Origin: an uncultured Verrucomicrobiota bacterium
Lineage (GTDB): Bacteria > Verrucomicrobiota > Verrucomicrobiia > Limisphaerales > J093
DNA length: 46,506 nt
NCBI GenBank assembly: GCA_964413865.1
Contig: CAYPUR010000001.1
Location: 44,730 to 91,235, forward strand
Direction: 5' to 3'
In this document: piece after piece, positions 7,920 to 20,356 of the stretch
Layout of the letters: each line of letters begins with the position of its first letter
How positions within the stretch are numbered: position 1 is the first letter of the stretch
The notes under the pieces: model-generated
The model's input: the letters and a program-made list of their open reading frames with translations, nothing else
Told to the model about the DNA's origin: nothing
The model's database searches: none
Made by a program: the position numbers and the translations under genes

Positions 7920-8321
7920 ATGAAGGGCCGTCCGAAAGTGGGAGCCGTGGGCGAACAGAAGTTCGTCGTGGAGGCAAAACACGCCATCGATTTCGCCGAC
8001 GGCGGCATGCCGCCCGTGCTGTGCACGCCTTGGCTGATTTGGTTCCTGGAACACGCCGCGCGCGCGGCCGTCCTCCCCTGTCTCGAGACCGGCGAGAGCA
8101 CCGTCGGTCTCGAGATCGAGGTGCGTCATGTCGCGCCTACCCCCCTGGGACACACCGTCACCTGTGCGGCCCGCGTGATCCATGTGGATGGGGCGCGCAT
8201 CACCTTCCAGGTCGAGGCTCATGATCAGACGGAGCTCATCGCCCGGGGCGTGCACCGGCTCCAGGTGATCCGCGTGGCCGGCTTCGCCAAGCGGGTCCAG
8301 CAAAAGGCCGTTTCCCGGTGA
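7920..8321 (+). CDS. Hotdog-fold thioesterase family protein
   Basis: 133 aa from ATG 7920 (MKGRPKVGAVGEQKFVV...). The motif TVGLEIEVRHVAPTPLGHTVTCAARV and overall size fit the small predicted-thioesterase (COG5496-like) family. Confidence 0.7.
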   Translation: MKGRPKVGAVGEQKFVVEAKHAIDFADGGMPPVLCTPWLIWFLEHAARAAVLPCLETGESTVGLEIEVRHVAPTPLGHTVTCAARVIHVDGARITFQVEAHDQTELIARGVHRLQVIRVAGFAKRVQQKAVSR

Positions 8322-8410
8322 TGCGACCGCAATCAACTCTGCACTCTCAACTCCCCCTTCCGCATGACTTCCTTCCATTCGTTGTTTCCCGAACTCGCCA
8401 TGCGCGACTC

Positions 8411-10552
8411 ATGAAAACAACCGAACAGGATCCGCCTCGGACATCCGTCGGCGAGGGCGCTGACGCGCGCAAGCGAGGCCCATGCGCTCCCCGGAATCAG
8501 CCGGCGCGGTTCGTGTCCGAGGCAGCGGCAGCAAGCCCGGCTCCCGCAACCGACGCAGTTGACACGGCGGGAGAACGCCCGCTCGGTCTGCCCACGCCCC
8601 AGGAAATCCGGGAGCGCGTGGTAGAGGTCATGCGGCAGGAGTATCCGCCAGCCGAAGCGGGTGGGGACGCCGTGGCCAATCGGACAGTCCAACAGCCGGC
8701 GGCCACCCACGCCAACGCCTCGCCCCCAACTCACCACTCCGCGCGATCGGTGGAGGGGACGGCGGCCGACGTGATCCCCGCCCGCATGCTCAACGAGTTT
8801 GTCTATTGCCCGCGGCTGTTCTACTACGAGTTTGTCGAAGGCGTGTTTGTGGAGAATGCGGACACGCTGCGCGGCAAGGGACTGCATCGGCGGGTGGACA
8901 CAGGCAACGGCGCCCTGCCGCCGGCGGCCGCAGTGGCCGACACCGGCGAACCATCAACCATCAACCACGAACCATCAACCGACGACGTCATTCATTCCCG
9001 TTCGGTGCAGATGGGCTCGGCCCGCCTGGGCGCCACGGCGAAGATGGACCTGATCGAGGCCCGCACGGGCGGTGACGACCTCTTCCGCGCGCTCGAAGTG
9101 TGCCCGGTCGACTACAAGGCGGGAGCGCCCAGGGAAGGAGACGATGGCAACGAACTGTGGGATGCCGACAAGATGCAGCTTGGGGTGCAGGCGCTGATCC
9201 TCCGCGACAACGGCTACACCTGTTCCGAGGGCGTCATCTATTACCGCGCCACCAAGCAGCGGGTGCGGCTGCCGGTCACGCCGGAGCTCGAGGCGTGGGT
9301 GAGAGACAACATCGCCCGGGCCCGCACGGTCGCTGCCGGCGCCATGCCGCCCCCTCTGGCCAATTCGCCCAAGTGCCCGCGCTGTTCGCTGGTCACGGTC
9401 TGCCTGCCCGATGAGACGCGGTTCCTTAAGACCGCGGCGGGGGCGGAGACCGCGGAGGACGTCCGCAGGCCAACCCCGCCGCCCTGTCCTACGCCGCGTC
9501 GGCTGATTGCGGCGCGGGACGACAGCCGCTCGCTCTACCTGAACACGCCGGGTCTGCGGGTGGGGCGGAAAGGCGAAGTGCTGCAAGTCAAGGAAGAGCG
9601 GGCCCTGCTCGACGAGGTGCGGCTGAAAGACGTTTCGCACGTGGCGCTGTTCGGAAACATCCAGATCTCGACGCAGGCCGTGCAGGCCCTCTGCGAGGCG
9701 GAGATCCCGGTCACGTACTTCTCGATGGGCGGCTGGTTCTACGGCATCACCCGCGGGCACGAGCTGAAGAACGTCTTCCTGCGCATCGAGCAGTTCCGTC
9801 GGGTCCGCGACGACGCCTTCGCGCTCGAACTGAGCCGGCAGTTCGTCCACGGCAAGATCCGCAATCACCGCACCATGCTCATGCGGAATCACCTCGAACC
9901 GCCGCCCGGCGTGATCACCCAACTCAAGCACCTCGCGGACAAGGCGCTGACGGCCACCAGCCGTGAGGAACTCCTCGGCCTCGAAGGCGCCGCCGCCGCC
10001 GCGTACTTTGCCGAGTTCAACGGGATGCTCAAAACCGCCGATGAACTGGCCGACGCGCCTGATCCCTGGGATGGTCAGTTGAGGTTCAACTTCGAGCATC
10101 GAAACCGGCGTCCGCCGACCGATCCCGTCAACGCGCTGCTGTCGCTCGGTTACAGTCTCCTGGCAAAGGACTGCACCGTCGCGGCTCTGGCAGTGGGGTT
10201 CGATCCGTACGTCGGTTTCTACCACCAACCGCGTTTTGGCCGTCCCGCCCTGGCCCTGGACGTCATGGAAGAGTTTCGTCCGCTGGTGGCCGAGTCCGTC
10301 GCCCTGGCCTGCATCAACAACCGCATCCTGAGTGTGAAGGACTTCGTCCGGGCCGGCGACGCGGTGAATCTCACCGCTGCCGGACGCAAACGCTACTTCC
10401 AGGCCTACGAACAGCGCCTGACCGCCCTGCTCACCCACCCGCTGTTCGACTACAAAGTCAGCTACCGCCGCGCCCTCGAACTCCAGATGCGCCTCCTGGC
10501 CAAAACCCTCACCGGCGAAATCGCCGAGTACGTGCCCTTGATGACCCGGTGA
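8411..10552 (+). CDS. cas1: CRISPR-associated Cas4-Cas1 fusion protein (type I-G/I-U style)
   Basis: The Cas4 part has MLNEFVYCPRLFYYEF, the RecB-like DLIE/VDYK motifs and the Cys cluster KCPRCSLVTVC. The Cas1 part has YLNTPGLRVGRKGEVLQV, LFGNIQISTQAVQAL, NALLSLGYSLL and GFYHQPRFGRPALALDVMEEFRP. The start is uncertain (ORF opens at 8318; ATGs at 8411 and 8630). Confidence 0.9.
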   Translation: MKTTEQDPPRTSVGEGADARKRGPCAPRNQPARFVSEAAAASPAPATDAVDTAGERPLGLPTPQEIRERVVEVMRQEYPPAEAGGDAVANRTVQQPAATHANASPPTHHSARSVEGTAADVIPARMLNEFVYCPRLFYYEFVEGVFVENADTLRGKGLHRRVDTGNGALPPAAAVADTGEPSTINHEPSTDDVIHSRSVQMGSARLGATAKMDLIEARTGGDDLFRALEVCPVDYKAGAPREGDDGNELWDADKMQLGVQALILRDNGYTCSEGVIYYRATKQRVRLPVTPELEAWVRDNIARARTVAAGAMPPPLANSPKCPRCSLVTVCLPDETRFLKTAAGAETAEDVRRPTPPPCPTPRRLIAARDDSRSLYLNTPGLRVGRKGEVLQVKEERALLDEVRLKDVSHVALFGNIQISTQAVQALCEAEIPVTYFSMGGWFYGITRGHELKNVFLRIEQFRRVRDDAFALELSRQFVHGKIRNHRTMLMRNHLEPPPGVITQLKHLADKALTATSREELLGLEGAAAAAYFAEFNGMLKTADELADAPDPWDGQLRFNFEHRNRRPPTDPVNALLSLGYSLLAKDCTVAALAVGFDPYVGFYHQPRFGRPALALDVMEEFRPLVAESVALACINNRILSVKDFVRAGDAVNLTAAGRKRYFQAYEQRLTALLTHPLFDYKVSYRRALELQMRLLAKTLTGEIAEYVPLMTR

Positions 10553-10749
10553 ACCACGGCGTAGACTCGCGCGCGATCAAGCCTATGGAAACACAACCGT
10601 GAAGCGCGCCTGGCTCGAACCGTTCACCTGGCCGGTCTACGTGCCGTGAGCACCAAGCGCCTCCTGCAGCAGGTCCGCCGCAATCCCATGCGTTTCCCGC
10701 CTCACTATTGCTTCCATTGCTTCCAGTTCTCCGCCGGGGAGTTCGCCGC

Positions 10750-10776
10750 TTTGAGGTCGCACATTGCGACCTCAAA
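10750..10776. promoter_or_regulatory. Perfect 12-bp inverted repeat with a 3-nt loop (TTTGAGGTCGCA-CAT-TGCGACCTCAAA)
   Basis: Read directly. It lies 198 nt after the cas4-cas1 stop and 128 nt before the mini-array. It could be a terminator hairpin or a protein operator. No T-tract follows it. Confidence 0.5.
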
Positions 10777-10904
10777 CCCTGGCCCGGGCGGACGGCGCTG
10801 CGCTCCCCGGGCCTTCACGGCACCCGGCACCCTGATGGCCGCCACCAAAAAGTTACGACCCTACCCCCGTATTTGTCCCACCCCCTGTGCCAGAATTGCC
10901 GCCA

Positions 10905-11016
10905 CATGAAACGAGCCGAAGCGTGGTCGAAAGGCGCCGCTCCAGAAGTTGTCTCGGATGAGACAATCTCCGATACCATGAAACGAGCCGAAGCGTGGTC
11001 GAAAGGCGCCGCTCCA
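10905..11016. CRISPR. Mini-CRISPR array: two identical 40-nt direct repeats flanking one 32-nt spacer
   Basis: CATGAAACGAGCCGAAGCGTGGTCGAAAGGCGCCGCTCCA occurs at 10905-10944 and 10977-11016, a 72-nt period. The spacer is GAAGTTGTCTCGGATGAGACAATCTCCGATAC (10945-10976). It sits inside the cas locus, 83 nt upstream of the csb1 start. With only two copies, repeat/spacer boundaries may be off by a few nt. Transcription orientation is undetermined. Confidence 0.6.
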
Positions 11017-11099
11017 CCGCGCGGGAGTGTGGGTCTTGGAGACTCACCTCGACACCCGGTTGGCGGCCGCTGCGGTGCCGAACACCCAAGGAACGAACT

Positions 11100-12389
11100 A
11101 TGACCAAGCCTGAAACCCTGACTCTGCAAGTCCTTCAACAAGCCGTGGCCGGAACAGCCGCCGCCTTTCGCTGCCGTCGCCGTCTCCAGCCTGGTGGCGG
11201 CGAGGGCGACAAGGTCTTTCCACCCACCTTCGCCGGTGCTGTCTATGCCGTAGAGCAACGACGCGTGCCCGGCCGACCCGACCCCGTGACGTGCGTCGTG
11301 CTCGACACCGTCCAATCCCAGGCCAACCGCATGGAACTGGCCTTGCAAGAGGCGGTGAACGCCGGCCGACTCCAGCTTCCGCTCATCGAGGTGGACTTCA
11401 GCCCGTGGTCGCCGACGGGCGACAAGGAAGCCGGCGACCAAGCCGGGAAACTCATCGAGAGGATTGGCAGAATCACCAGCCTCCAGGTCCCGCACCGCCT
11501 GGCTGACGCCATCCTGCGCGACAGTGAGGTGGACGGCCAACCGTTTCGCAAGTCACCCGCAGCGAAAAGCCTGAACGAAGTCAGCCCGCTTAATGCCACG
11601 CCCCTGTACAAGCTGTGTCCCACCTCTTTGACCTTCGGCATGTGGGACTCCACCGGCCCCAAAGGTGGCCTCGGCGCCAAGTTCGAGCGGGCCGTGGTCT
11701 CGGAGGTGGTGGGCGTAGGCACCGCTGTCGGTGACCTGCTGCGCGGCGTGCGCCGGGACCCGCTGGAAATCCGGGCTGCGGTCAAGGTCCTCAAGGCTGC
11801 GGATAAGAGCTGGAGCGTCGCCGACCCGAGGGCCAAAGGGGCGGTGCCCCCGTCCAAAGTCAACCACAGCAGCGTTCCGTTCCCAGAGCAACGAACCGAG
11901 AAGACCGACGAAAACCACTACGCTGGTGTTACCCTCGAATACGCCGAGCAGATCACCACGCTCTCGCTCATCGTCCTGCGACGGCTCCGCTTTCCACTCG
12001 AACGTAAGGAAGACGAGAAAGACGAGGAGTATTGCAGACGTTGCACGGAAGCCGATGGCGCCGCCCGCACAGTCTTGGCCGCTCTCGGTCTGTGCGCGGC
12101 CACGCTGGCCTTCGAAAACGGCATGGGCCTGCGCTCGCGCTGTCTGCTCTGGCCCGACGGGCCGATGACCTGGGAGCTGCTCGCCAAGCCTGGCGAAGCG
12201 CCGCAGCCCTATTCCCTCACCGCGGATGAAGCCGTGGCCATCCTCACCGACGCCGCCGAGAAGGCAGCCGCTACCGGTCTGGCCTGGGCGACCGCCCCCC
12301 TGCGTTTGCAGCCCCAGCCCAAGCTCGTGGAGTTGGTGCGCCTCAGCCAGGTCGAAGCCACCAAGGAAGCCGGCGAAGGAGCCGACTGA
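11100..12389 (+). CDS. csb1: Type I-G/I-U CRISPR-associated RAMP protein Csb1 (Cas7u/Cas7g)
   Basis: Starts MTKPETLTLQVL at ATG 11100 with AAGGAA upstream. Family-typical motifs: GDKVFPPTFAG, VLDTVQSQANRME, LQVPHRLADAILRDS and CPTSLTFGMWDSTG. Confidence 0.9.
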   Translation: MTKPETLTLQVLQQAVAGTAAAFRCRRRLQPGGGEGDKVFPPTFAGAVYAVEQRRVPGRPDPVTCVVLDTVQSQANRMELALQEAVNAGRLQLPLIEVDFSPWSPTGDKEAGDQAGKLIERIGRITSLQVPHRLADAILRDSEVDGQPFRKSPAAKSLNEVSPLNATPLYKLCPTSLTFGMWDSTGPKGGLGAKFERAVVSEVVGVGTAVGDLLRGVRRDPLEIRAAVKVLKAADKSWSVADPRAKGAVPPSKVNHSSVPFPEQRTEKTDENHYAGVTLEYAEQITTLSLIVLRRLRFPLERKEDEKDEEYCRRCTEADGAARTVLAALGLCAATLAFENGMGLRSRCLLWPDGPMTWELLAKPGEAPQPYSLTADEAVAILTDAAEKAAATGLAWATAPLRLQPQPKLVELVRLSQVEATKEAGEGAD

Positions 12390-12390
12390 C

Positions 12391-13875
12391 ATGCTCACCC
12401 TCGGCATCCGCTATCTCAACGGCTTTGTGGTTGCCTCTCACGGCCGGCATGAGCTGCTCGAGTGGCCGCCGCATCCGGGCCGCTTCTTCATGGCCCTGGT
12501 GGCCGCCCACTACGAAACCGGCGCGGACCCAGCCGAGCGTGAGGCGCTGCTCTGGCTGGAGCGCCTGCCCGAGCCGCCCGAGGTTCACGCGCCGGAGGCC
12601 TGTCCGCGCACCACCGTCACCCAATACGTGCCGGTGAATGACAAGACGGGGCCTTCCACCGCGCCGATGCACTCGTTGCCTCTCACCCGAGACCGCAAGG
12701 ACCGCACTTTCGCCCGCGCCTGGCTGACCGGCGACACCGCCTTTGTGCACTGGCCGCAGGCCGACCCACCACCGGGCATCCGCGCTGCCTTGGAAGCTCT
12801 CTGCGCTAAGACTACGCGCATCGGACATTCGTCCTCCCTGGTCCAGGTGTGGCTGGCGGACCAGCCGTCGGCCTCCCTGCCTCGGTGGGTGCCCGATTCC
12901 GCTCGCGCCACCATCCCGATGCGCGTACCTGTGCCCGGCACCTTGCGGGCGCTGGACGAGGACTTCCAGCAGCGCCACGAGCGGGCACGTGATCCGCGCG
13001 ACCAATCCAAATCCCGCTCCCCGGTCGCGGGCAAACGCCCCTTGGCCGAGCACGGCTACGCGCTCGCGGCCGAGGCCGCAGCTCCCGCTTCGGCCCCTGG
13101 CACGGTCTTCAGCCCGCATTTGCTCCTGTTCGATCTGGAGCGACTAGACGGGCCGTATCGGCACCTCGACGTGGCTTGCACCCTTGCCCTCACCGCACGT
13201 TGGCGCGAAGCCCTCACCAGCCACGCCAACGACCTCTCTGCGGAGGCCCAGCAGGTCATCTGCGGCCACACGCCCGACCACCTGCATTTGGAACGACCGC
13301 ACCTGGCCTTCCTGCCACTGGCGGTCGTGGGGCACCCGCACGCTGACGGTCACCTGCTGGGCGCGGCGCTCGCTTTGCCCGAAGCCATGCCCGCCTCCCT
13401 CCGGCAGGAGGTTCTCCGGGCCGCTGGCCGCGCCCGAGAGCTTGTGCTCGGCCGGCTCGGCAAATGGGCGTTGGGACCCGTCACCATGCCGCGCCCGCCC
13501 TTAGCCTTGCGCCCCGACACTTGGACGGCGTACCCGGCAGGTGCCACCCATTGGGCCACCGTCACGCCCGTGGCCTTTGATCAGCATCCCAAGGCCAAAG
13601 ATAAAGCCGCCTATCAGCAGGAAGCCGCCGAGTTGATTGCCGCCGCCTGCGGGCGCATTGGCCTGCCACACCCGCGCGAGGTGATCCTCACGCCCGTGTC
13701 CGCCCATCTGGGCGCGCCGCCGGCACACGCCTACCCGCGCCTGCGCCGCAAGGACGGCACCGAACGGCGGCACACCCACGCCATCCTGGCGTTTGCCGAG
13801 CCGGTGCGCGGACCGCTTCTGCTGGGCGCGGGGCGGTATCGGGGCTATGGAGTTTTCAGGCCGATGATCGCTTGA
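12391..13875 (+). CDS. csb2: Type I-G/I-U CRISPR-associated protein Csb2 (Cas5/Cas6-like fusion)
   Basis: The ATG at 12391 is 1 nt after the csb1 stop. N-terminus MLTLGIRYLNGFVVAS...WPPHPGRFFMALVAA. C-terminal glycine-rich RAMP loop FAEPVRGPLLLGAGRYRGYGVFRP. Confidence 0.9.
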   Translation: MLTLGIRYLNGFVVASHGRHELLEWPPHPGRFFMALVAAHYETGADPAEREALLWLERLPEPPEVHAPEACPRTTVTQYVPVNDKTGPSTAPMHSLPLTRDRKDRTFARAWLTGDTAFVHWPQADPPPGIRAALEALCAKTTRIGHSSSLVQVWLADQPSASLPRWVPDSARATIPMRVPVPGTLRALDEDFQQRHERARDPRDQSKSRSPVAGKRPLAEHGYALAAEAAAPASAPGTVFSPHLLLFDLERLDGPYRHLDVACTLALTARWREALTSHANDLSAEAQQVICGHTPDHLHLERPHLAFLPLAVVGHPHADGHLLGAALALPEAMPASLRQEVLRAAGRARELVLGRLGKWALGPVTMPRPPLALRPDTWTAYPAGATHWATVTPVAFDQHPKAKDKAAYQQEAAELIAAACGRIGLPHPREVILTPVSAHLGAPPAHAYPRLRRKDGTERRHTHAILAFAEPVRGPLLLGAGRYRGYGVFRPMIA

Positions 13876-13921
13876 TCCGCTGACTCGCTGCCGCTTGCCG
13901 ACGCGCTCTATCTTCACCGCC

Positions 13922-14872
13922 ATGAACACCTCCATGGACCCGAAGCTCCACCACCAAGCCGTGCAGCGCGCCCTCGCCCTGGGCCGGGGCACCGATCCCA
14001 CCGCCCTCCCGGAACTCGCGCGGCTCATCACCTTTCCCTCCGCGGAAATCCGCCGCTTGGCCGCTTCAGCCATTGGCAAACTCGCCTCCTTCGGCGCTGA
14101 GCCGGTCGCTGCCGTCCAGGCCCTGGCTCCCGTGGCGCTGCGCGATCCGCACCCCCAGGCCCAGCAATACGCGCTGAAGGCCCTTAAGCTCTATGGCGCG
14201 GACGCCCGCCACCATCTCCACGATCTCGACGACTTGGCCGTCAACGAGCGCGCCAAAGATTACATCCGCCGCGCCGCCGATTCCGCAGCCCAAGCGATCC
14301 GAGACGCTCTCCGCCTCGAACAGGAGCACGCCCAGCATAAGTGCGTCCGCTGCGGTCGCGAAGTCACGCCCGACGAACACACCCGCAGCCAGCAAGCCTT
14401 CCAACGCACCTTCTGCGACGCCTGCTTCGACCAGGTCTTCCTCGACCGCCGCAACTTCGACACCAAGGTCGAGCTGCAAAAAACCATCCTCGCCCAAGCC
14501 GGCACCCTGGTGCAGTCCGACGGCGAACGGCTCATTGCCGACTGGCTCGCCGCCCACCACATCGCTTACCGGTACGACGAGCGCTTCCGGATCCTCAGCG
14601 GCCACGCCATCCGCCCCGATTTCTACCTGCCCGAGCTCGACCTCTATATCGAATACTGGGGCCTGGACACCGCTGACTACCAGATCGGCATGCTCAAGAA
14701 ACAGCAACTCTATCAGCAGGAAGGCAAACGTCTCATTTCGCTCCGTCCCGCCGACAAGCCGCGTCTCGATGCAGTGCTCCGCTCCAAACTCGCTCTTTTC
14801 GGCTACCATGTCCCGCCCGCCACACCATCCGGCTTTCGCAAGCCGCCCCCACCGGGCGTCGGCGAGCCCTAG
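13922..14872 (+). CDS. Uncharacterised cas-embedded protein: HEAT-like repeats + CxxC...CxxC zinc ribbon + PD-(D/E)XK-like nuclease domain
   Basis: 316 aa from ATG 13922 (an alternative TTG lies at 13895). HEAT-like helices: SAEIRRLAASAIGKLASFG, DPHPQAQQYALKALKLYG. Zinc ribbon: CVRCGREV...FCDACF. C-terminus: GERLIADWLAAHHIAYRYDERF...IRPDFYLPELDLYIEYWG...KKQ. It is same-strand and tightly spaced between csb2 (46-nt gap) and cas3 (13-nt gap). Confidence 0.7.
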   Translation: MNTSMDPKLHHQAVQRALALGRGTDPTALPELARLITFPSAEIRRLAASAIGKLASFGAEPVAAVQALAPVALRDPHPQAQQYALKALKLYGADARHHLHDLDDLAVNERAKDYIRRAADSAAQAIRDALRLEQEHAQHKCVRCGREVTPDEHTRSQQAFQRTFCDACFDQVFLDRRNFDTKVELQKTILAQAGTLVQSDGERLIADWLAAHHIAYRYDERFRILSGHAIRPDFYLPELDLYIEYWGLDTADYQIGMLKKQQLYQQEGKRLISLRPADKPRLDAVLRSKLALFGYHVPPATPSGFRKPPPPGVGEP

Positions 14873-14885
14873 CGAGTCAGCCCTC

Positions 14886-17861
14886 ATGCTTCCCGACTTC
14901 TCCACCTTCTTCCACACCCTCTGGGCCTGCGAGCCTTTCCCCTGGCAAACCCAGCTCGCCGACCGTGTGGCCACGGCCGCCTGGCCCGACGCCGTTGACC
15001 TCCCTACCGCAGCCGGCAAGACCGCCTGTCTGGACATCGCCATCTGGGCGCTCGCCGCCCAGGCCGAACGGCCCCGCGGCCAGCGCTCCGCCGCCCGACG
15101 CATCTGGTTCGTCGTGGACCGCCGCATCGTGGTGGACGAAGCCTTCGATCGCGCCAAGTGCCTCGCGAACAAACTGGCCACCGACTCCGCCCCGGCCATT
15201 CGCACCGTGGCCGAACGCCTTTTGGACCTCCGCGGCATGCCCTCACGCGAGCGCCCGCTTGCCGTCGGCCGCCTCCGCGGCGGCGTGCTGCGCGATGACC
15301 ACCGGGCACGCATCCCCTCCCAGCCCGCCATCATCACCAGCACCGTGGACCAACTCGGCTCGCGTTTGCTTTTCCGCAGCTACGGCGACAGCCAGCTCGC
15401 CGCGCCCATCTATGCCGGCCTCGCGGCCAACGACAGCCTCATCCTGCTGGACGAAGCCCATTGCGCCGTGCCCTTCCTCCAAACCCTTCGCGCCGTCCGT
15501 CGCTTTCGCTCCGCCAGATGGTCGGAGGTGGGAAACGACACTCCGTTTCACGTCGTCGTTCTCTCCGCCACCCCGCCCGCCGCAGCCGATGGAGAACCAC
15601 TTGAGGCCTTTCCCGCTCCAGGCGAACGCGCCGGGGCGCTGGACCACCCGCTCCTCCAACGACGGCTCAATGCCTGCAAACCCGCCGTCCTTGAGTCCGT
15701 GCACGACGAGGAGGCACTCACCAGGCGCCTAACCGAGACTGCCGCGGACTTTGCCCGCGCCGGCAAACGCCGCGTCGGCGTCATCGTCAACCGCGTCGGC
15801 CGCGCCACGGACATCGCGGGGTCGCTCCGCGCCGAAGCCCTGAAAGGCCGCGCCTCGGACGAAGGCCCCGCCTTCGATGTCGCCCTCCTCACCGGCCGTA
15901 TCCGGCCCTTCGAACGCGACCTCCTGGTCGGTCCCGGCACGTCCCTGCACCGCGTGCTCCGCGCCACCAACCCCGAGGAGCCTCCGCGTCCCCTCATTCT
16001 TGTCGCGACTCAGTGCCTCGAAGTCGGCGCCGACTTCAGCTTCGACGCCCTCGTCACCGAATGCGCCAGCCTCGATGCCCTCCGCCAGCGCTTCGGCCGC
16101 CTCAACCGCCTCGGCCTGCCCGGCGACGCACCCGCGCTCATCGCTGTCGCCCGGTCCCAGCTCAAAGACCCCGACCCCATCTATGGCGACGCCTTGAAGG
16201 CCACCTGGGAATTCCTCCAAAGCCGGGCCACCGCCGAGCGCAGCGCGAAAGGCAAAGAAACTCGCCGCGTGGACTTCGGCATCCACGCCCTCACCCCGCT
16301 CCTGCCCGTCGGCAACGATCGCCTCCCGTTGCTCGCCCCGGCCCCCGACGCGCCCATCCTCCTGCCCGCGCACCTGGATCTCCTTTGCCAGACATCCCCG
16401 TCGCCGCACCCCGATCCGGACATCGCCCCATTCCTCCACGGCAAGGGCCGCGGCCAGCCAGAAGCCCGTGTCGTCTGGCGCTGCGACCTCGACCCACAGC
16501 GGCCCGAAGACTGGCCCGAAATCCTCAGCCTCTGCCGGCCCGTCGTGGGCGAGATGTTGCCCGTGCCTCTCTTCCGTCTTCGCCAGTGGATGCGCGACCG
16601 CGCCAGCGCCGACCTCACCGGCGACGTGCAAAGCTCGGCGCCCGCGACCGACACTCCACCAGTCCGAGCCGCCGCCACGCCCTTCCTGCTCTGGCGCGGG
16701 CGCGAACATTCCGAAGTCCTCACCGACCCGGCGCGCATCCCGCCCGGCGCCGTGGTCATCCTGTCCGTGCCCGCGAGTCCGGTCGAAGCCGACGCCCTAG
16801 GCCAAGCCTTGCGCGAGCAGGCCCTAGGCCCTGGCCGCTTCGACCTCTGGGAACTCGCCTGGCAACAGACCGGCCGCCCCGCCAGCCTGCGCCTGCACCG
16901 CGCCAGCCTCGCCCCCTGGCTGCCGACCTGCCGGCCCCTGGCCGGCCTCTTGGACCTCGCCGGGCGCGACGACTGGACCCTCGCCGAACTCCACGACGCC
17001 CTTGCCGCCGTCCGCGACTGGACGCCGGAAGACGGCGCACCCTCGCCACTGGACCTCTGGCTGCGCGACCTGTTCGCCGCGGTGGCCCACGTTCGCAAAC
17101 GCGACGTGGCCGTTCATCCCGGCGGTGGCCTCGTGCTCCGCGCGCCCGCTGCCGTCCCTGCGGAAGAACCCGACCTTTTCGCCGACGAAGACGACCAGTG
17201 GAGCGAAGCACCGGGCGAAATTCCGCTTACCGACCACACCGAGCAAGTCGAGCAGACCGTCGGGGTCCTGGCCCGCTCCTGCCTCGACGAAGCCACCGCA
17301 GCGCTGCTCCAGGCCGCCGCCCGCTGGCACGACGCCGGCAAACTCGACCCCCGCTTCCAGGTCCTCCTGCGTGGCGGACTCCCGGACCTGGACCATCCGC
17401 TCGCCAAATCCCCCGACCTGCCGCGCTCCCAGGATCAGGCCCGTCGTAACCGCGAAGCCGCCGGCCTGCCCGAGGTCTTTCGCCACGAAATGCTCTCCCT
17501 GCAACTGGCTGAACGCGTCGCCGCCTCCTCCCTCGGCCCGGAGGACCGCGAACTGTTCCTCCATCTGATCGCCAGCCACCACGGCCGCGCCCGGCCCTTT
17601 GCGCCCGTGTGTGAAGACCCCGTGCCGCCGCCGGTTGAAAGCCATCTCGGCGGCATGCCTATCTCCCTCACGGCCACCGATCGCCAGGCCCTCACCCCAC
17701 CGCACCGGCTCGATTCCGGCGTGAGCGACCGTTTCTGGCGGCTCGTCCGCCGCTTCGGCTGGTGGGGCCTGGCCTACCGCGAAGCTATCCTACGCTTGGC
17801 CGACTGGCACGCCAGCGCCCATCCAAAAACCTCGTCCGCCGCCCCCGCCTCCCAGCCATGA
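14886..17861 (+). CDS. cas3: Type I-G/I-U Cas3 helicase with C-terminal HD nuclease domain
   Basis: Starts MLPDFSTFFHTLW at ATG 14886. Motif I is PTAAGKTA and the DEAH box is ILLDEAHC. The C-terminal HD-type motifs are LTDHTEQV, ARWHDAGKLD, FRHEMLS and IASHHG. The ORF-track start at 14193 overlaps the preceding gene and is rejected. Confidence 0.9.
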   Translation: MLPDFSTFFHTLWACEPFPWQTQLADRVATAAWPDAVDLPTAAGKTACLDIAIWALAAQAERPRGQRSAARRIWFVVDRRIVVDEAFDRAKCLANKLATDSAPAIRTVAERLLDLRGMPSRERPLAVGRLRGGVLRDDHRARIPSQPAIITSTVDQLGSRLLFRSYGDSQLAAPIYAGLAANDSLILLDEAHCAVPFLQTLRAVRRFRSARWSEVGNDTPFHVVVLSATPPAAADGEPLEAFPAPGERAGALDHPLLQRRLNACKPAVLESVHDEEALTRRLTETAADFARAGKRRVGVIVNRVGRATDIAGSLRAEALKGRASDEGPAFDVALLTGRIRPFERDLLVGPGTSLHRVLRATNPEEPPRPLILVATQCLEVGADFSFDALVTECASLDALRQRFGRLNRLGLPGDAPALIAVARSQLKDPDPIYGDALKATWEFLQSRATAERSAKGKETRRVDFGIHALTPLLPVGNDRLPLLAPAPDAPILLPAHLDLLCQTSPSPHPDPDIAPFLHGKGRGQPEARVVWRCDLDPQRPEDWPEILSLCRPVVGEMLPVPLFRLRQWMRDRASADLTGDVQSSAPATDTPPVRAAATPFLLWRGREHSEVLTDPARIPPGAVVILSVPASPVEADALGQALREQALGPGRFDLWELAWQQTGRPASLRLHRASLAPWLPTCRPLAGLLDLAGRDDWTLAELHDALAAVRDWTPEDGAPSPLDLWLRDLFAAVAHVRKRDVAVHPGGGLVLRAPAAVPAEEPDLFADEDDQWSEAPGEIPLTDHTEQVEQTVGVLARSCLDEATAALLQAAARWHDAGKLDPRFQVLLRGGLPDLDHPLAKSPDLPRSQDQARRNREAAGLPEVFRHEMLSLQLAERVAASSLGPEDRELFLHLIASHHGRARPFAPVCEDPVPPPVESHLGGMPISLTATDRQALTPPHRLDSGVSDRFWRLVRRFGWWGLAYREAILRLADWHASAHPKTSSAAPASQP

Positions 17862-18994
17862 GCGCGCCGCCTCAACCACTCGACCTCCCCGCCCTGGACG
17901 GCACCAACCCGCTCGGCTTCCTCGCCGCCCTCGGCACGCTCGCCGTGCTCTCCGAGACCGACCCCGACCTCCGCCTCGGCTGGCGCCGCGGGCCGAGATG
18001 GACGGCGTTTCTGTCGAGGCTCAGGCCTTTGACCGAGTCAGGCCTGGCGAGGTTTCTGGGGCGAAAGCTCCGAGGCAAGCCGGTCACCGCGAGCGCGGCC
18101 GTGCAATGCACGGCTGCGAGAAAGGCGCTAGATCGGGCGAAGAAAGCCCGGGGAGACGCCGAGAAAAGAGTCAAAGCGCAGAAACTACGCGGCAAGGAGC
18201 GCGAGTCCGCGTGGCAGGCCGACGTCGAACCGCTGGTCCGCCACTTCAACGAGGCAAGGCAGGGTTACCTCCGTGCGCTGAAGTCCGTGAGTCCCTCAGC
18301 GGAGCTGGCCTTGGGCGACCGCCCCGATTGCACCAGCGAAGAATTCCGCGGCCACAGTGGCGAGGCCCTGCTCGCCGCCGGCCTCAAGAGCCGGGGCGTC
18401 CCCGACCTTCTTATGGCCTTCGGCTGCGAGGCCAGCCCGAATGACGGACAGCGCATCGCCCCCACACCCTTTTGCTTCATCACAGGCAGTGGCCATCAGT
18501 GGTTCCTCAAGACGGCGCGGGATTTGATGGCCGAGGCCTCTGTTGCCGGGTTCCATAAAGCCATATTCCAGTCCTGGCGCTACTCCGACCCCGGCCTCTC
18601 CATGCGCTGGGATCCGGTCGAGGACACCCGCTACGCCCTGCGCCTGGACGACCCCGGCCCGGCCGGCGTGAGCACCGTCTGGATGGCCAACCTTCTCGCT
18701 TACCGCGCGCTGGCCTTCTTCCCCTGCGCCTGGGATGGCCGCGCCTCGGCCGCCGCCGGTTGGACCCACGACCGTGAGCATCCCTGCTTCACCTGGCCCT
18801 TGTGGGAAACACCCCTCACCGCTGACACCGTGCGCTCCTTGCTGCGTCACCCCGCGTTCGGTGAACCCGACCTTGCAGACTGGAAAGCCGAACTCCGCGC
18901 CCGGGGCGTGTCCGCCATCTACCGATCCCGCCGCATCCAGGTCGGCAGCGGCACCAACTACAAAGTGAACTTCACCCCAGCCCAGTCCGTTTGA
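17858..18994 (+). CDS. Putative type I-G/I-U large-subunit protein (Cas8u/Cas8g; Csx17/Csb3-like), short form (378 aa)
   Basis: The ATG at 17858 overlaps the cas3 stop (ATGA). The N-terminus LDGTNPLGFLAALGTLAVLSE...LGWRR resembles the Csx17-type N-terminal motif. Its position in the operon fits a large subunit. The family assignment is from memory of motifs only. Confidence 0.55.
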   Translation: MSAPPQPLDLPALDGTNPLGFLAALGTLAVLSETDPDLRLGWRRGPRWTAFLSRLRPLTESGLARFLGRKLRGKPVTASAAVQCTAARKALDRAKKARGDAEKRVKAQKLRGKERESAWQADVEPLVRHFNEARQGYLRALKSVSPSAELALGDRPDCTSEEFRGHSGEALLAAGLKSRGVPDLLMAFGCEASPNDGQRIAPTPFCFITGSGHQWFLKTARDLMAEASVAGFHKAIFQSWRYSDPGLSMRWDPVEDTRYALRLDDPGPAGVSTVWMANLLAYRALAFFPCAWDGRASAAAGWTHDREHPCFTWPLWETPLTADTVRSLLRHPAFGEPDLADWKAELRARGVSAIYRSRRIQVGSGTNYKVNFTPAQSV

Positions 18995-19021: not shown

Positions 19022-19189
19022 ATGCGCACTACTTACCCCGTCTGCTACGACATCACCGACGACAATCGGTTGCGCCGTGTTTTCAAGGGCTGCAAGAACT
19101 ACGGCGATCATCTGCAATGCTCGGTGTTCGAATGCGATCTGTCCGTGGCCGAGCGCGTCCATCAGTCGCTGGTGAAGTTCTCGGACTAG
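19022..19189 (+). pseudogene. cas2: Truncated cas2 (55 codons; N-terminal half only)
   Basis: MRTTYPVCYDITDDNRLRRVFKGCKNYGDHLQCSVFECDLSVAERVHQSLVKFSD* carries the Cas2 beta1 motif with its Asp and the LQ-SVFEC motif. It stops at about 55 aa, whereas Cas2 is normally about 90-100 aa. At under 60 aa it is absent from the ORF track. Confidence 0.75.
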
Positions 19190-19339
19190 GCCCCGGTCTT
19201 CACCGGCAACGCCGGCGTGGCCTTCAGACTGACGTTCGCCCAACCGGTCAGCGGCCTGCTCGCCCTGGGCTACGGCGCCCACTTTGGACTGGGTTTGTTT
19301 GTGCCGCTTGACCGATGCGGGGGCGCGGTGCCAGCCTGA
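19190..19339 (+). pseudogene. Csb2-like C-terminal remnant fused directly behind the truncated cas2
   Basis: The frame starting at 19190 reads APVFTGNAGVAFRLTFAQPVSGLLALGYGAHFGLGLFVPLDRCGGAVPA*. This parallels the intact Csb2 C-terminus LAFAEPVRGPLLLGAGRYRGYGVFRP at 13780-13875. Confidence 0.5.
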
Positions 19340-19348
19340 AAGCACAAC

Positions 19349-19847: not shown

Positions 19848-20344
19848 GGAAATGGAGAATGGAAAATGGAGAAGGAGGGGGGAGTGGGCGGTTTAGGGAT
19901 TATGTTCGGCGCGACGACGGATCGTGGTGAAGATGGCGACCAATTGACTGGCTTCGTCCAACGCCGCGGTGAGGGCCGGGGTGTCGGCGACCCCCTCCGC
20001 GGCAATCAGTTCGATCCAATAGGTGGTTTCGTCGGCTTCCTTGAGGCAATCGCCGATCTTCGCGATGAACTCGGCCTTGCTCCGGGCCTGGTCGCTCTCG
20101 CGGTAGTTGGCCCCAACCGACGTTCCGGCGCGCAACATCTGCCGTCCGAGAGTCTGGGCGAGCACGCCACGATCCAGCGACACATAGAGCCGGACGATCT
20201 GTCGGGCAAAGCGGAGAGTGCGCTCCCGCAAGTCCCGCGGGCGCCCGTGCCCCTGCCCCCTCGGCTCTGTTCCTTCGTTCATGGCTTCCACCTCCTCACC
20301 CACAAGTAACACGCCCTTTCTCCATTTTCCATTTTCCATTCTCC
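19848..20344. mobile_element. Four-helix-bundle gene cassette bounded by imperfect inverted repeats built from ATGGA(G/A)A units
   Basis: The left arm GGAAATGGAGAATGGAAAATGGAGAA (19848-19873) pairs with the right arm TTCTCCATTTTCCATTTTCCATTCTCC (20318-20344). The reverse complement of the right arm shares AATGGAAAATGGAGAA with the left arm. The cassette lies between two cas2 5' fragments. Confidence 0.55.
19893..20282 (-). CDS. Four-helix-bundle protein (23S rRNA intervening-sequence protein family)
   Basis: Starts MNEGTEP at ATG 20282. Motifs FARQIVRLY, LGRQMLRAGTSVGANYRES, AEFIAKIGDCLKEADETTYWIELI. Confidence 0.85.
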   Translation of the reverse strand: MNEGTEPRGQGHGRPRDLRERTLRFARQIVRLYVSLDRGVLAQTLGRQMLRAGTSVGANYRESDQARSKAEFIAKIGDCLKEADETTYWIELIAAEGVADTPALTAALDEASQLVAIFTTIRRRAEHNP

Positions 20345-20356
20345 ACTTCACTTCCC

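Follow-up and report, generated by a model that had tools for sequence, protein, structure and literature searches.

Why does a type I-G CRISPR operon carry, between csb2 and cas3, a gene for a helical-repeat protein with a nuclease-like C-terminus? The question is raised by the 46,506-nucleotide stretch of an uncultured Verrucomicrobiota bacterium analyzed here (the window), where an open reading frame (ORF) of 316 aa with no internal stop lies on the same strand as its two neighbors, 46 nt after the csb2 stop, which ends at 13875, and 13 nt before the cas3g ATG at 14886. This position, described in an earlier note on the same DNA, is borne out by the coordinates, and our annotation of the operon by profile matches agrees with the neighbors named there. 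On the general view, Cascade and Cas3 suffice for type I CRISPR interference, and we know of few accessory nucleases for type I systems. Within a single bacterial phylum, the functionally uncharacterized family to which the protein belongs shows a close and recurrent linkage to cas3. Should the protein cooperate with Cas3, this would reveal how a nick-and-unwind enzyme gets help in finishing its task and could change the deletion patterns of Cas3-based genome-editing tools; if it is a mere guest, intergenic slots of cas operons would be landing pads for unrelated small genes, with consequences for gene discovery by "guilt-by-association". As a tentative answer, held with somewhat less than even confidence, we propose that Cas3-dependent systems have recruited a solitary nuclease of the PVC superphylum as an optional accessory endonuclease, co-expressed with cas3 and acting on DNA structures that a helicase generates.

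Long chance ORFs are frequent in DNA of 66% G + C. Despite this composition the ORF is a real gene, because its G + C content by codon position (0.73/0.44/0.81) is similar to that of the neighboring cas genes, more than 2,160 homologs are found in databases (E ≤ 1e-3), and an N-terminal "MNxxMD" is kept among them. The conserved N-terminus also leads us to prefer the ATG at 13922 over the alternative upstream TTG at 13895, and a separate gene call on contigs encoding the identical protein gives the same boundaries. Neither junction (csb2/gene or gene/cas3g) contains a promoter-like or terminator-like site, which counts as weak evidence for the co-transcription with the interference genes that the earlier note took as almost certain and that we consider likely. 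That note knew of no described family with this architecture; the PADLOC-DB v2 model PDLC01150, "HEAT_CxxC_PD-DEXK", however, matches the protein end to end (E 1.1e-120, 400 bits, residues 5-291 on model positions 1-285 of 288) and also detects relatives only 33-43% identical to it. Judged by this match, the protein is a member of an already catalogued, uncharacterized family. The model name lists the three modules as they follow one another in the protein, and PDLC01150 is a catalogue entry only, with no paper, function or mechanism found attached to it; a search of the literature likewise yielded no paper on the family. The name resembles what we take to be a Koonin-group label for a CRISPR-linked profile. 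Homologs bear only the public names "HEAT repeat domain-containing protein" or "hypothetical protein".

HEAT repeats, a CxxC...CxxC zinc ribbon and a PD-(D/E)XK-like domain follow one another in the protein, in agreement with the three-module architecture proposed before (coordinates in Table 1). Pfam HEAT_2 is found above its gathering cut-off (E 5.4e-7, 30.2 bits against 27.7), the AlphaFold model has seven helices across residues 7-134 with a predicted local distance difference test (pLDDT) of 88-97, and Foldseek matches this module to alphaRep and other HEAT proteins. The cysteines C141, C144, C165 and C168 are invariant in 31 homologs and retained by all divergent full-length members; their spacing is CxxC-x20-CxxC rather than the CxxC-x17-CxxC first reported, and the ribbon has weak matches to the zinc-ribbon families DUF1272, DUF7685 and RpoP. 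The C-terminal tail varies in length across homologs and its terminal PGVGER motif recurs; among the homologs examined, P0018, P0051, P0055, P0087 and P0103, the PGVGE(R/P) motif is doubled or tripled in some. One 603-aa homolog, P0242, has a permuted domain order, with the nuclease ahead, in mid-protein, and the HEAT repeats C-terminal; because both modules are kept in this permuted order, the sequence suggests that their pairing is itself under selection. P0242 also matches the PADLOC models "HEAT-ARM_XIII" and "WGR_XIII".

The motifs GERLIADWL and IRPDFYLPELDLYIEYWG, on which a nuclease fold had been proposed, are both present in the protein. Foldseek with the full-length model was dominated by HEAT and alphaRep matches, so residues 135-300 were refolded alone with a more diverse alignment (pLDDT 87, predicted template-modelling score 0.75). 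The modelled nuclease core is alpha-beta-beta-beta-alpha-beta (helix 200-211, four strands, helix 251-266, strand 270-274), and its best match in the PDB is the homing endonuclease I-Bth0305I (E 5.6e-3, target template-modelling score 0.65), with Bax1 second-best and further matches to the R2 RLE endonuclease domain, DrdV, AbaSI, PvuRts1I, Vsr, NGO0050 and VRR-NUC. Every nuclease among the 16 best matches has the restriction-endonuclease fold; interleaved with them are mitoribosomal proteins of Toxoplasma gondii, presumably RAP-domain proteins. Searched against PDB sequences, the C-terminal domain as a single sequence returned noise only, and a profile of 19 divergent C-terminal domains matched T7 endonuclease I (E 0.09), whose helix-1 Glu, "PD" Asp and strand-3 Glu (E20, D55 and E65) align with E202, D233 and E244, whereas its catalytic Lys67 aligns with W246. 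Some individual family members have weak Pfam matches to Vsr, Phage_endo_I and DUF790, the last of which we take to be the Bax1 family. Each of these lines is weak alone, but all agree on a predicted restriction-endonuclease fold, the fold that the earlier note had proposed to test with AlphaFold and Foldseek.

Conservation bears on whether this predicted fold is also an enzyme. G201, E202, Y218, D233, F234, Y235, L236, E244, Y245, Y253, K260 and Y264 are invariant to 27% identity, with E202, D233, E244 and K260 so across the range of 27-67%. The putative metal-binding acidic triad is, as judged from the alignments, under strict selection, because it is invariant down to 27% identity. The E...PD...(D/E)xK pattern claimed earlier therefore stands for the fold and the acidic residues but not for the lysine, whose place is taken by W246, nearly invariant itself (Y or F in two members). 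This substitution, on account of which activity is not certain, and the weak E-values of the structure and profile matches count against the accessory-endonuclease reading. K260 on the following helix may stand in for the canonical lysine, and PD-(D/E)XK variants with a relocated lysine are known. Taking model and alignments together, we place the protein in the T7-endonuclease-I/Vsr-like branch of the PD-(D/E)XK fold, as a probably active DNA endonuclease that depends on metal. The nearly invariant W246 would also suit a catalytically dead scaffold or regulator, whose nuclease-fold domain would serve for DNA binding alone while the protein modulated cas expression or the activity of Cas3; HEAT repeats commonly act as scaffolds, and the gene often adjoins a WYL regulator. 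We nevertheless give this a low probability, as three acidic ligands and K260 invariant to 27% identity are the pattern expected of an active site with a moved lysine, and relatives fused to helicases keep the E-x-W motif.

Comparison with known enzymes places the nuclease domain, by its core fold, with T7 endonuclease I, Vsr, I-Bth0305I and DUF559. Those enzymes, unlike the 316-aa protein, have neither HEAT module nor zinc ribbon, and the likeness, at marginal E-values, gives no sign of junction, mismatch or homing specificity. Relatives are also found inside helicases: UvrD/GajB-like superfamily 1 proteins (for example WP_259532874 and WP_065871665) on Vibrio and haloarchaeal plasmids contain the same nuclease family at 33% identity, with the motifs GER..ADFL and RPDFYLPEYDLYIEHWGLD and with the E-x-W motif of the 316-aa protein, so that the likeness to a UvrD-like helicase domain noticed earlier was well founded. 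In these helicases the nuclease is fused inside and there is no HEAT module, whereas the 316-aa protein is separate and encoded beside the superfamily 2 helicase Cas3. Because the same domain is inserted in UvrD/GajB-like helicases, it may work with helicases (a Rosetta-stone fusion argument, giving indirect support). In the XPB-Bax1 pair of archaeal nucleotide-excision repair, likewise, a superfamily 2 helicase works together with a separate PD-(D/E)XK-type nuclease that is encoded next to it; the parallel with the 316-aa protein and Cas3 is an analogy only, the similarity being weak and the accessory domains different. We regard it as rather improbable that the protein genuinely partners Cas3 in type I systems, as Bax1 does XPB, and that as a structure-specific endonuclease co-expressed with Cas3 it cuts whichever strand or fork the HD nuclease of Cas3 is unable to cut. 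If correct, this would turn single-strand shredding by Cas3 into double-strand destruction, or supply defined fragments to Cas4-Cas1, and class 1 systems would have gained a new class of accessory for interference from a solitary PVC nuclease.

Cas operons also encode Cas4, a nuclease with the PD-(D/E)XK fold, but the 316-aa protein lacks the C-terminal Fe-S cysteine cluster of Cas4, belongs to another branch of the fold and matches neither the Cas4 nor the PDDEXK_1 profile, both of which match the Cas4-Cas1 fusion of the window. Cas4 is thus already present in the window, and the 316-aa gene is absent from most I-G loci. The nuclease domain is common to the PADLOC candidates PDC-S69 (E 9e-20) and PDC-S68 (E 3e-9), both uncharacterized, whose N-terminal parts are different, being either TPR-like or made up of other domains over about 1,100 aa, and is shared by TPR-plus-nuclease proteins such as P0248.

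The genomic setting of the family was surveyed in 83 loci, by clustering all called proteins within 10 kb and annotating the largest neighbor clusters through a representative; a simple gene caller based on G + C at third codon positions (GC3) missed genes (for example csb1 in the window), and the cas counts therefore rest on tblastn and cluster annotation. Ten of the 12 annotated clusters are Cas proteins or a CRISPR-associated WYL regulator: Cas3g (21 loci), Cas1/Cas4-Cas1 (14), Csx17 (10), Cas2 (9), Csb2 (8 + 8), Csb1 (7 + 8), small Cas8g (7), the WYL regulator (6), Cas5c (6) and Cas7c (4). The other two (5 loci each) had no match to defense models. The survey, which the earlier note had called for, found linkage to cas genes in 24 of the 30 loci of a Verrucomicrobia clade that includes the window (about 70% identity or more to it), and in approximately 31 of the 83 loci overall. 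In the clade the linked copies lie inside type I-G or I-C operons, mostly beside cas3, and in every cas-linked locus the cas genes are co-directional with the homolog. At least four gene orders occur, the recurrent ones being given in Table 1, and in L012, L020, L024 and L053 there is an overlap of 4 nt between the start codon of the homolog and the stop of the cas3 or WYL gene upstream. In a neighbor-joining tree all cas gene orders are interleaved within the Verrucomicrobia clade, therefore the cas linkage survived rearrangement. Such recurrent, co-directional placement in cas operons of several architectures is what characterizes a CRISPR accessory.

From these comparisons we infer a nuclease activity, its substrate and any coupling to Cas3 as follows. 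The gene, which the Verrucomicrobiota clade has repeatedly taken up as a non-core accessory of type I-G and I-C operons, would in the window be co-transcribed with csb1-csb2 and cas3g. The C4 zinc ribbon and the long helix connect the nuclease to a short HEAT-repeat module, which might bind a partner or ligand not specific to a Cas subtype. Once Cas3 has unwound and nicked its target, the nuclease could act in trans on forks, flaps or single/double-strand junctions, and so complete target destruction or yield fragments for adaptation.

Several observations weigh against this proposal. Family-wide, CRISPR linkage does not extend to most members: about 50 of the 83 loci are solitary, almost entirely so in the Lentisphaerae and Kiritimatiellae clades, and the 112 immediate neighbors in 40 solitary loci are heterogeneous and mostly housekeeping, including PolA, GidA, AlaRS, FTHFS and glycosidases, with only scattered defense matches. 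In addition, none of the 66 I-G loci retrieved from metagenomes with the window Csb2 as anchor carries a homolog of the 316-aa protein, in line with its claimed absence from the canonical I-G set. The operons most closely related to that of the window (L083-85; Csb2 92%, Cas3g 88% and Cas4-Cas1 86% identical) lack the gene as well, and their slot holds instead a 204-aa four-helix-bundle protein of the 23S_rRNA_IVP type (E 6e-7, just under the Pfam cut-off). Identity of the HEAT domain to that of the window stays at 71-79% regardless of the Cas3 alongside, be it 70% identical (L003), about 30% identical (L004, L009) or missing (L001); because the domain does not co-vary with Cas3 subtype or presence, the comparison does not favor specific docking on Cas3 or Cascade, the route of recruitment that had been suggested. 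The CRISPR locus of the window moreover looks degraded, with a truncated cas2 and no array in 46.5 kb, which makes for a weaker claim that the gene serves a working CRISPR system in this genome. Separately, a helicase partner was sought in the solitary loci and rejected, the large neighbors being PolA, AlaRS, glycosidases and a protease.

The csb2-to-cas3 gap is usually 12-23 nt (five loci, those with both gene ends mapped) and reaches about 600 nt in L083-85, where the other gene occupies it; L120, with a Cas3g 62% identical, also lacks the 316-aa gene. Because no Csb2-anchored I-G locus carries it and sister operons hold a different gene in the slot, the 316-aa gene is an optional insertion at a cargo-accepting junction, dispensable for the system, and it is not a core type I-G Cas protein. 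The small protein lends itself to testing, and nature offers operon pairs that differ in the presence of the gene (the window and L083-85).

The different small gene in the slot of the sister operon also speaks for the hitch-hiker option of the earlier note. In its developed form the protein would be an autonomous guest, a self-contained defense or restriction-like nuclease with a helical-repeat and zinc-ribbon sensor and the nuclease as effector, whose gene settles in permissive intergenic slots of cas operons and is co-expressed with them but has no mechanistic link to Cas3 or Cascade. We judge this somewhat unlikely in itself, and nearly as likely as the accessory endonuclease. Most family members are solitary, the slot of L083-85 holds an unrelated small gene, other guests are seen in the window operon (the ORF6N fragment and the 23S_rRNA_IVP gene), the nuclease domain recurs in PDC-S68, PDC-S69 and P0248, and the HEAT domain is indifferent to Cas subtype. 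Against this reading, the solitary copies lie outside defense islands, few of their 112 neighbors match defense models, and the copies of the Verrucomicrobia clade are specifically in type I cas operons, usually touching cas3, and not in assorted defense systems. In other clades, I-C operons show the linkage as well (L032, L052, L070, L080).

A distribution scan with one genome per species found the family in at least 431 species. The 80 best, for which taxonomy was described, all belong to the PVC superphylum except a few unclassified metagenome-assembled genomes and one Neomarinimicrobiota bin; they comprise Opitutaceae and other Verrucomicrobiota, Lentisphaerae, Kiritimatiellae and a few Planctomycetota, at 56-82% identity, and full-length members form only about 15 clusters at 50% clustering. 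These data suggest a family confined to the PVC superphylum and an ancestrally solitary gene. Such slow evolution, with 56-82% identity between phylum-level groups and a tree that roughly tracks taxonomy, would fit a lineage-specific housekeeping nuclease of DNA repair or recombination (Vsr-like or a junction resolver) that PVC bacteria pass on vertically and that came to lie in cas operons by accident; the housekeeping neighbors, with polA directly upstream in L041 and L043, and the best sequence-profile match, T7 endonuclease I, which is a junction resolvase, point the same way. Accident does not explain, however, why 24 of 30 clade copies are in cas operons at several positions, nor is synteny conserved family-wide (686 neighbor clusters among 964 proteins), and the gene is present or absent between near-identical operons. 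The PVC superphylum holds, by our estimate, many thousands of species, and a distribution over at least 431 of them looks patchy. We therefore consider a housekeeping role quite unlikely. In the two related solitary loci the gene lies directly 3' of polA (L041, 366-3191; L043, 7186-9993), and in L043 its start overlaps the polA end by 8 nt.

The structural match to I-Bth0305I, the clean presence or absence at an intergenic junction and one solitary copy adjoining a phage Mu Gam and a terminase-like gene could also suggest a selfish mobile gene that, like a homing endonuclease, inserts between genes. This we hold to be very unlikely: no full-length member was found among 2.9 million viral contigs (IMG/VR), no near-identical DNA copies occur in different contexts, GC3 is like that of host genes, identity tracks taxonomy, and the 3' DNA motif of the gene is not repeated in the window. 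Neither carriage on mobile DNA nor recent mobility, the marks of a free-standing homing endonuclease, was thus seen for the 316-aa gene. The DNA coding for PGVGE was considered as a repeated extragenic element and rejected, with 7 matches in the window against 4.5 expected (not significant). A phage origin was likewise rejected, viral contigs containing only distant nuclease domains of this kind.

Table 1. Features of the 316-aa gene, of the surrounding cas operon and of related loci (positions in the window unless a locus is named)
Feature	Position or loci	Strand	Basis
HEAT + zinc-ribbon + nuclease gene, 316 aa	13922..14872	+	translation, PADLOC PDLC01150 match, >2,160 homologs
HEAT-repeat module, residues 1-135, three helix pairs then long helix	13922..14326	+	Pfam, AlphaFold, Foldseek
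C4 zinc ribbon, residues 139-170, C141-x2-C144-x20-C165-x2-C168	14336..14431	+	invariant Cys, weak family matches
Predicted PD-(D/E)XK-fold nuclease domain, residues 197-295	14510..14806	+	model, Foldseek, profile alignment
Candidate catalytic codons	E202 14525-14527; D233 14618-14620; E244 14651-14653; K260 14699-14701	+	conservation
Disordered Pro-rich tail, terminus PGVGE(P/R)	14807..14869	+	pLDDT below 50
cas4g/cas1g fusion	8318..10552	+	NF049935 E 2e-212
ORF6N (KilA-N-like) ORF, 87 aa, between cas4/cas1 and csb1	10646-10906	+	E 7e-10
csb1 (cas7g)	11100..12389	+	Pfam Cas_GSU0053 E 1e-51; gene call on identical contig
csb2 (cas5-6g), upstream neighbor	12391..13875	+	TIGR02165 E 3e-88; gene call on identical contig
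cas3g, downstream neighbor	14886..17861	+	TIGR02621 E 5e-206
Small Cas8g ("Cas3-extension" family)	17858..18994	+	NF049934 E 1e-63; PADLOC Cas8g E 1e-69
Truncated cas2	19022-19342	+	55 Cas2-like codons (MRTTYPVCYDITDDNRL...), TAG at 19187-19189
23S_rRNA_IVP four-helix-bundle gene just downstream of cas operon	19893-20348	-	
23S_rRNA_IVP-type slot gene	L083 6947-7558	+	related type to window gene 19893-20348
Gene order csb1-csb2-X-cas3g-cas8g(small)	window, L003, L007, L008, L010, L022		
Gene order WYL-X-cas3g-csx17-csb1-csb2-cas4/1	L004, L009, L019, L053		
Gene order cas3g-X-csx17	L012, L020, L023, L024		
Gene order type I-C cas3-cas5c-cas8c-cas7c-X-cas4-cas1-cas2	L032, L052, L070, L080		
X, the 316-aa gene or its homolog.

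The state of the window operon bears on two replacement roles. Cas3g has intact Walker A, DEAH and HD motifs, as aligned to the L083 Cas3g (88% identical), and a replacement for a dead Cas3 HD nuclease was accordingly rejected. A replacement for the dead Cas2, suggested in the earlier note, does not agree with the homologous operons that carry both the gene and an intact cas2 (L016, L020, L022, L023, L070, L080). Beyond the TAG of the window cas2 the frame reads ...GYGAHFGLGLFVPLD, resembling the C-terminus of a second Csb2 variant, and because of this resemblance the region looks like a deletion scar that joins cas2 to a csb2 3' end. The near-identical contig L232 has CAG in place of this TAG, giving a 105-aa chimera. 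No CRISPR array was found across the 46.5-kb window (1-46506). In the sister locus L083, 13 repeats (~36 nt, CTCTCCGCGCTCACGTGAGCGCGGCCCCGTTGAAGC) lie at 12224-13141, about 500 nt past cas8g, and this repeat has no match in the window even at 3 mismatches.

Some minor features of the operon and of related loci complete the description. The profile match of the Cas4g/Cas1g fusion begins at residue 153 of the 744-aa ORF, whose GTG at 8318 adjoins a thioesterase gene (7920-8318), and the true start is probably, from the extent of the match, well downstream of this GTG. The ORF6N ORF also matches the PADLOC candidate PDC-S05 and appears to be another guest gene or fragment within the operon. Small 23S_rRNA_IVP genes seem to colonize cas operon junctions. 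In L038, four copies of ~23 nt (GCCCCCGCCCCCTGCACTGTCGA) with irregular spacing, unlike a typical CRISPR array, are present at 10930-11109, at and just past the 3' end of the homolog and up to the contig end. Finally, the Cas3-like protein encoded directly downstream of the homolog in L002 (10979-14509, 1,176 aa) has a Fic domain according to precomputed Pfam matches, and type III-B genes (Cmr2, Cmr3) are found a few kb beyond its gene.

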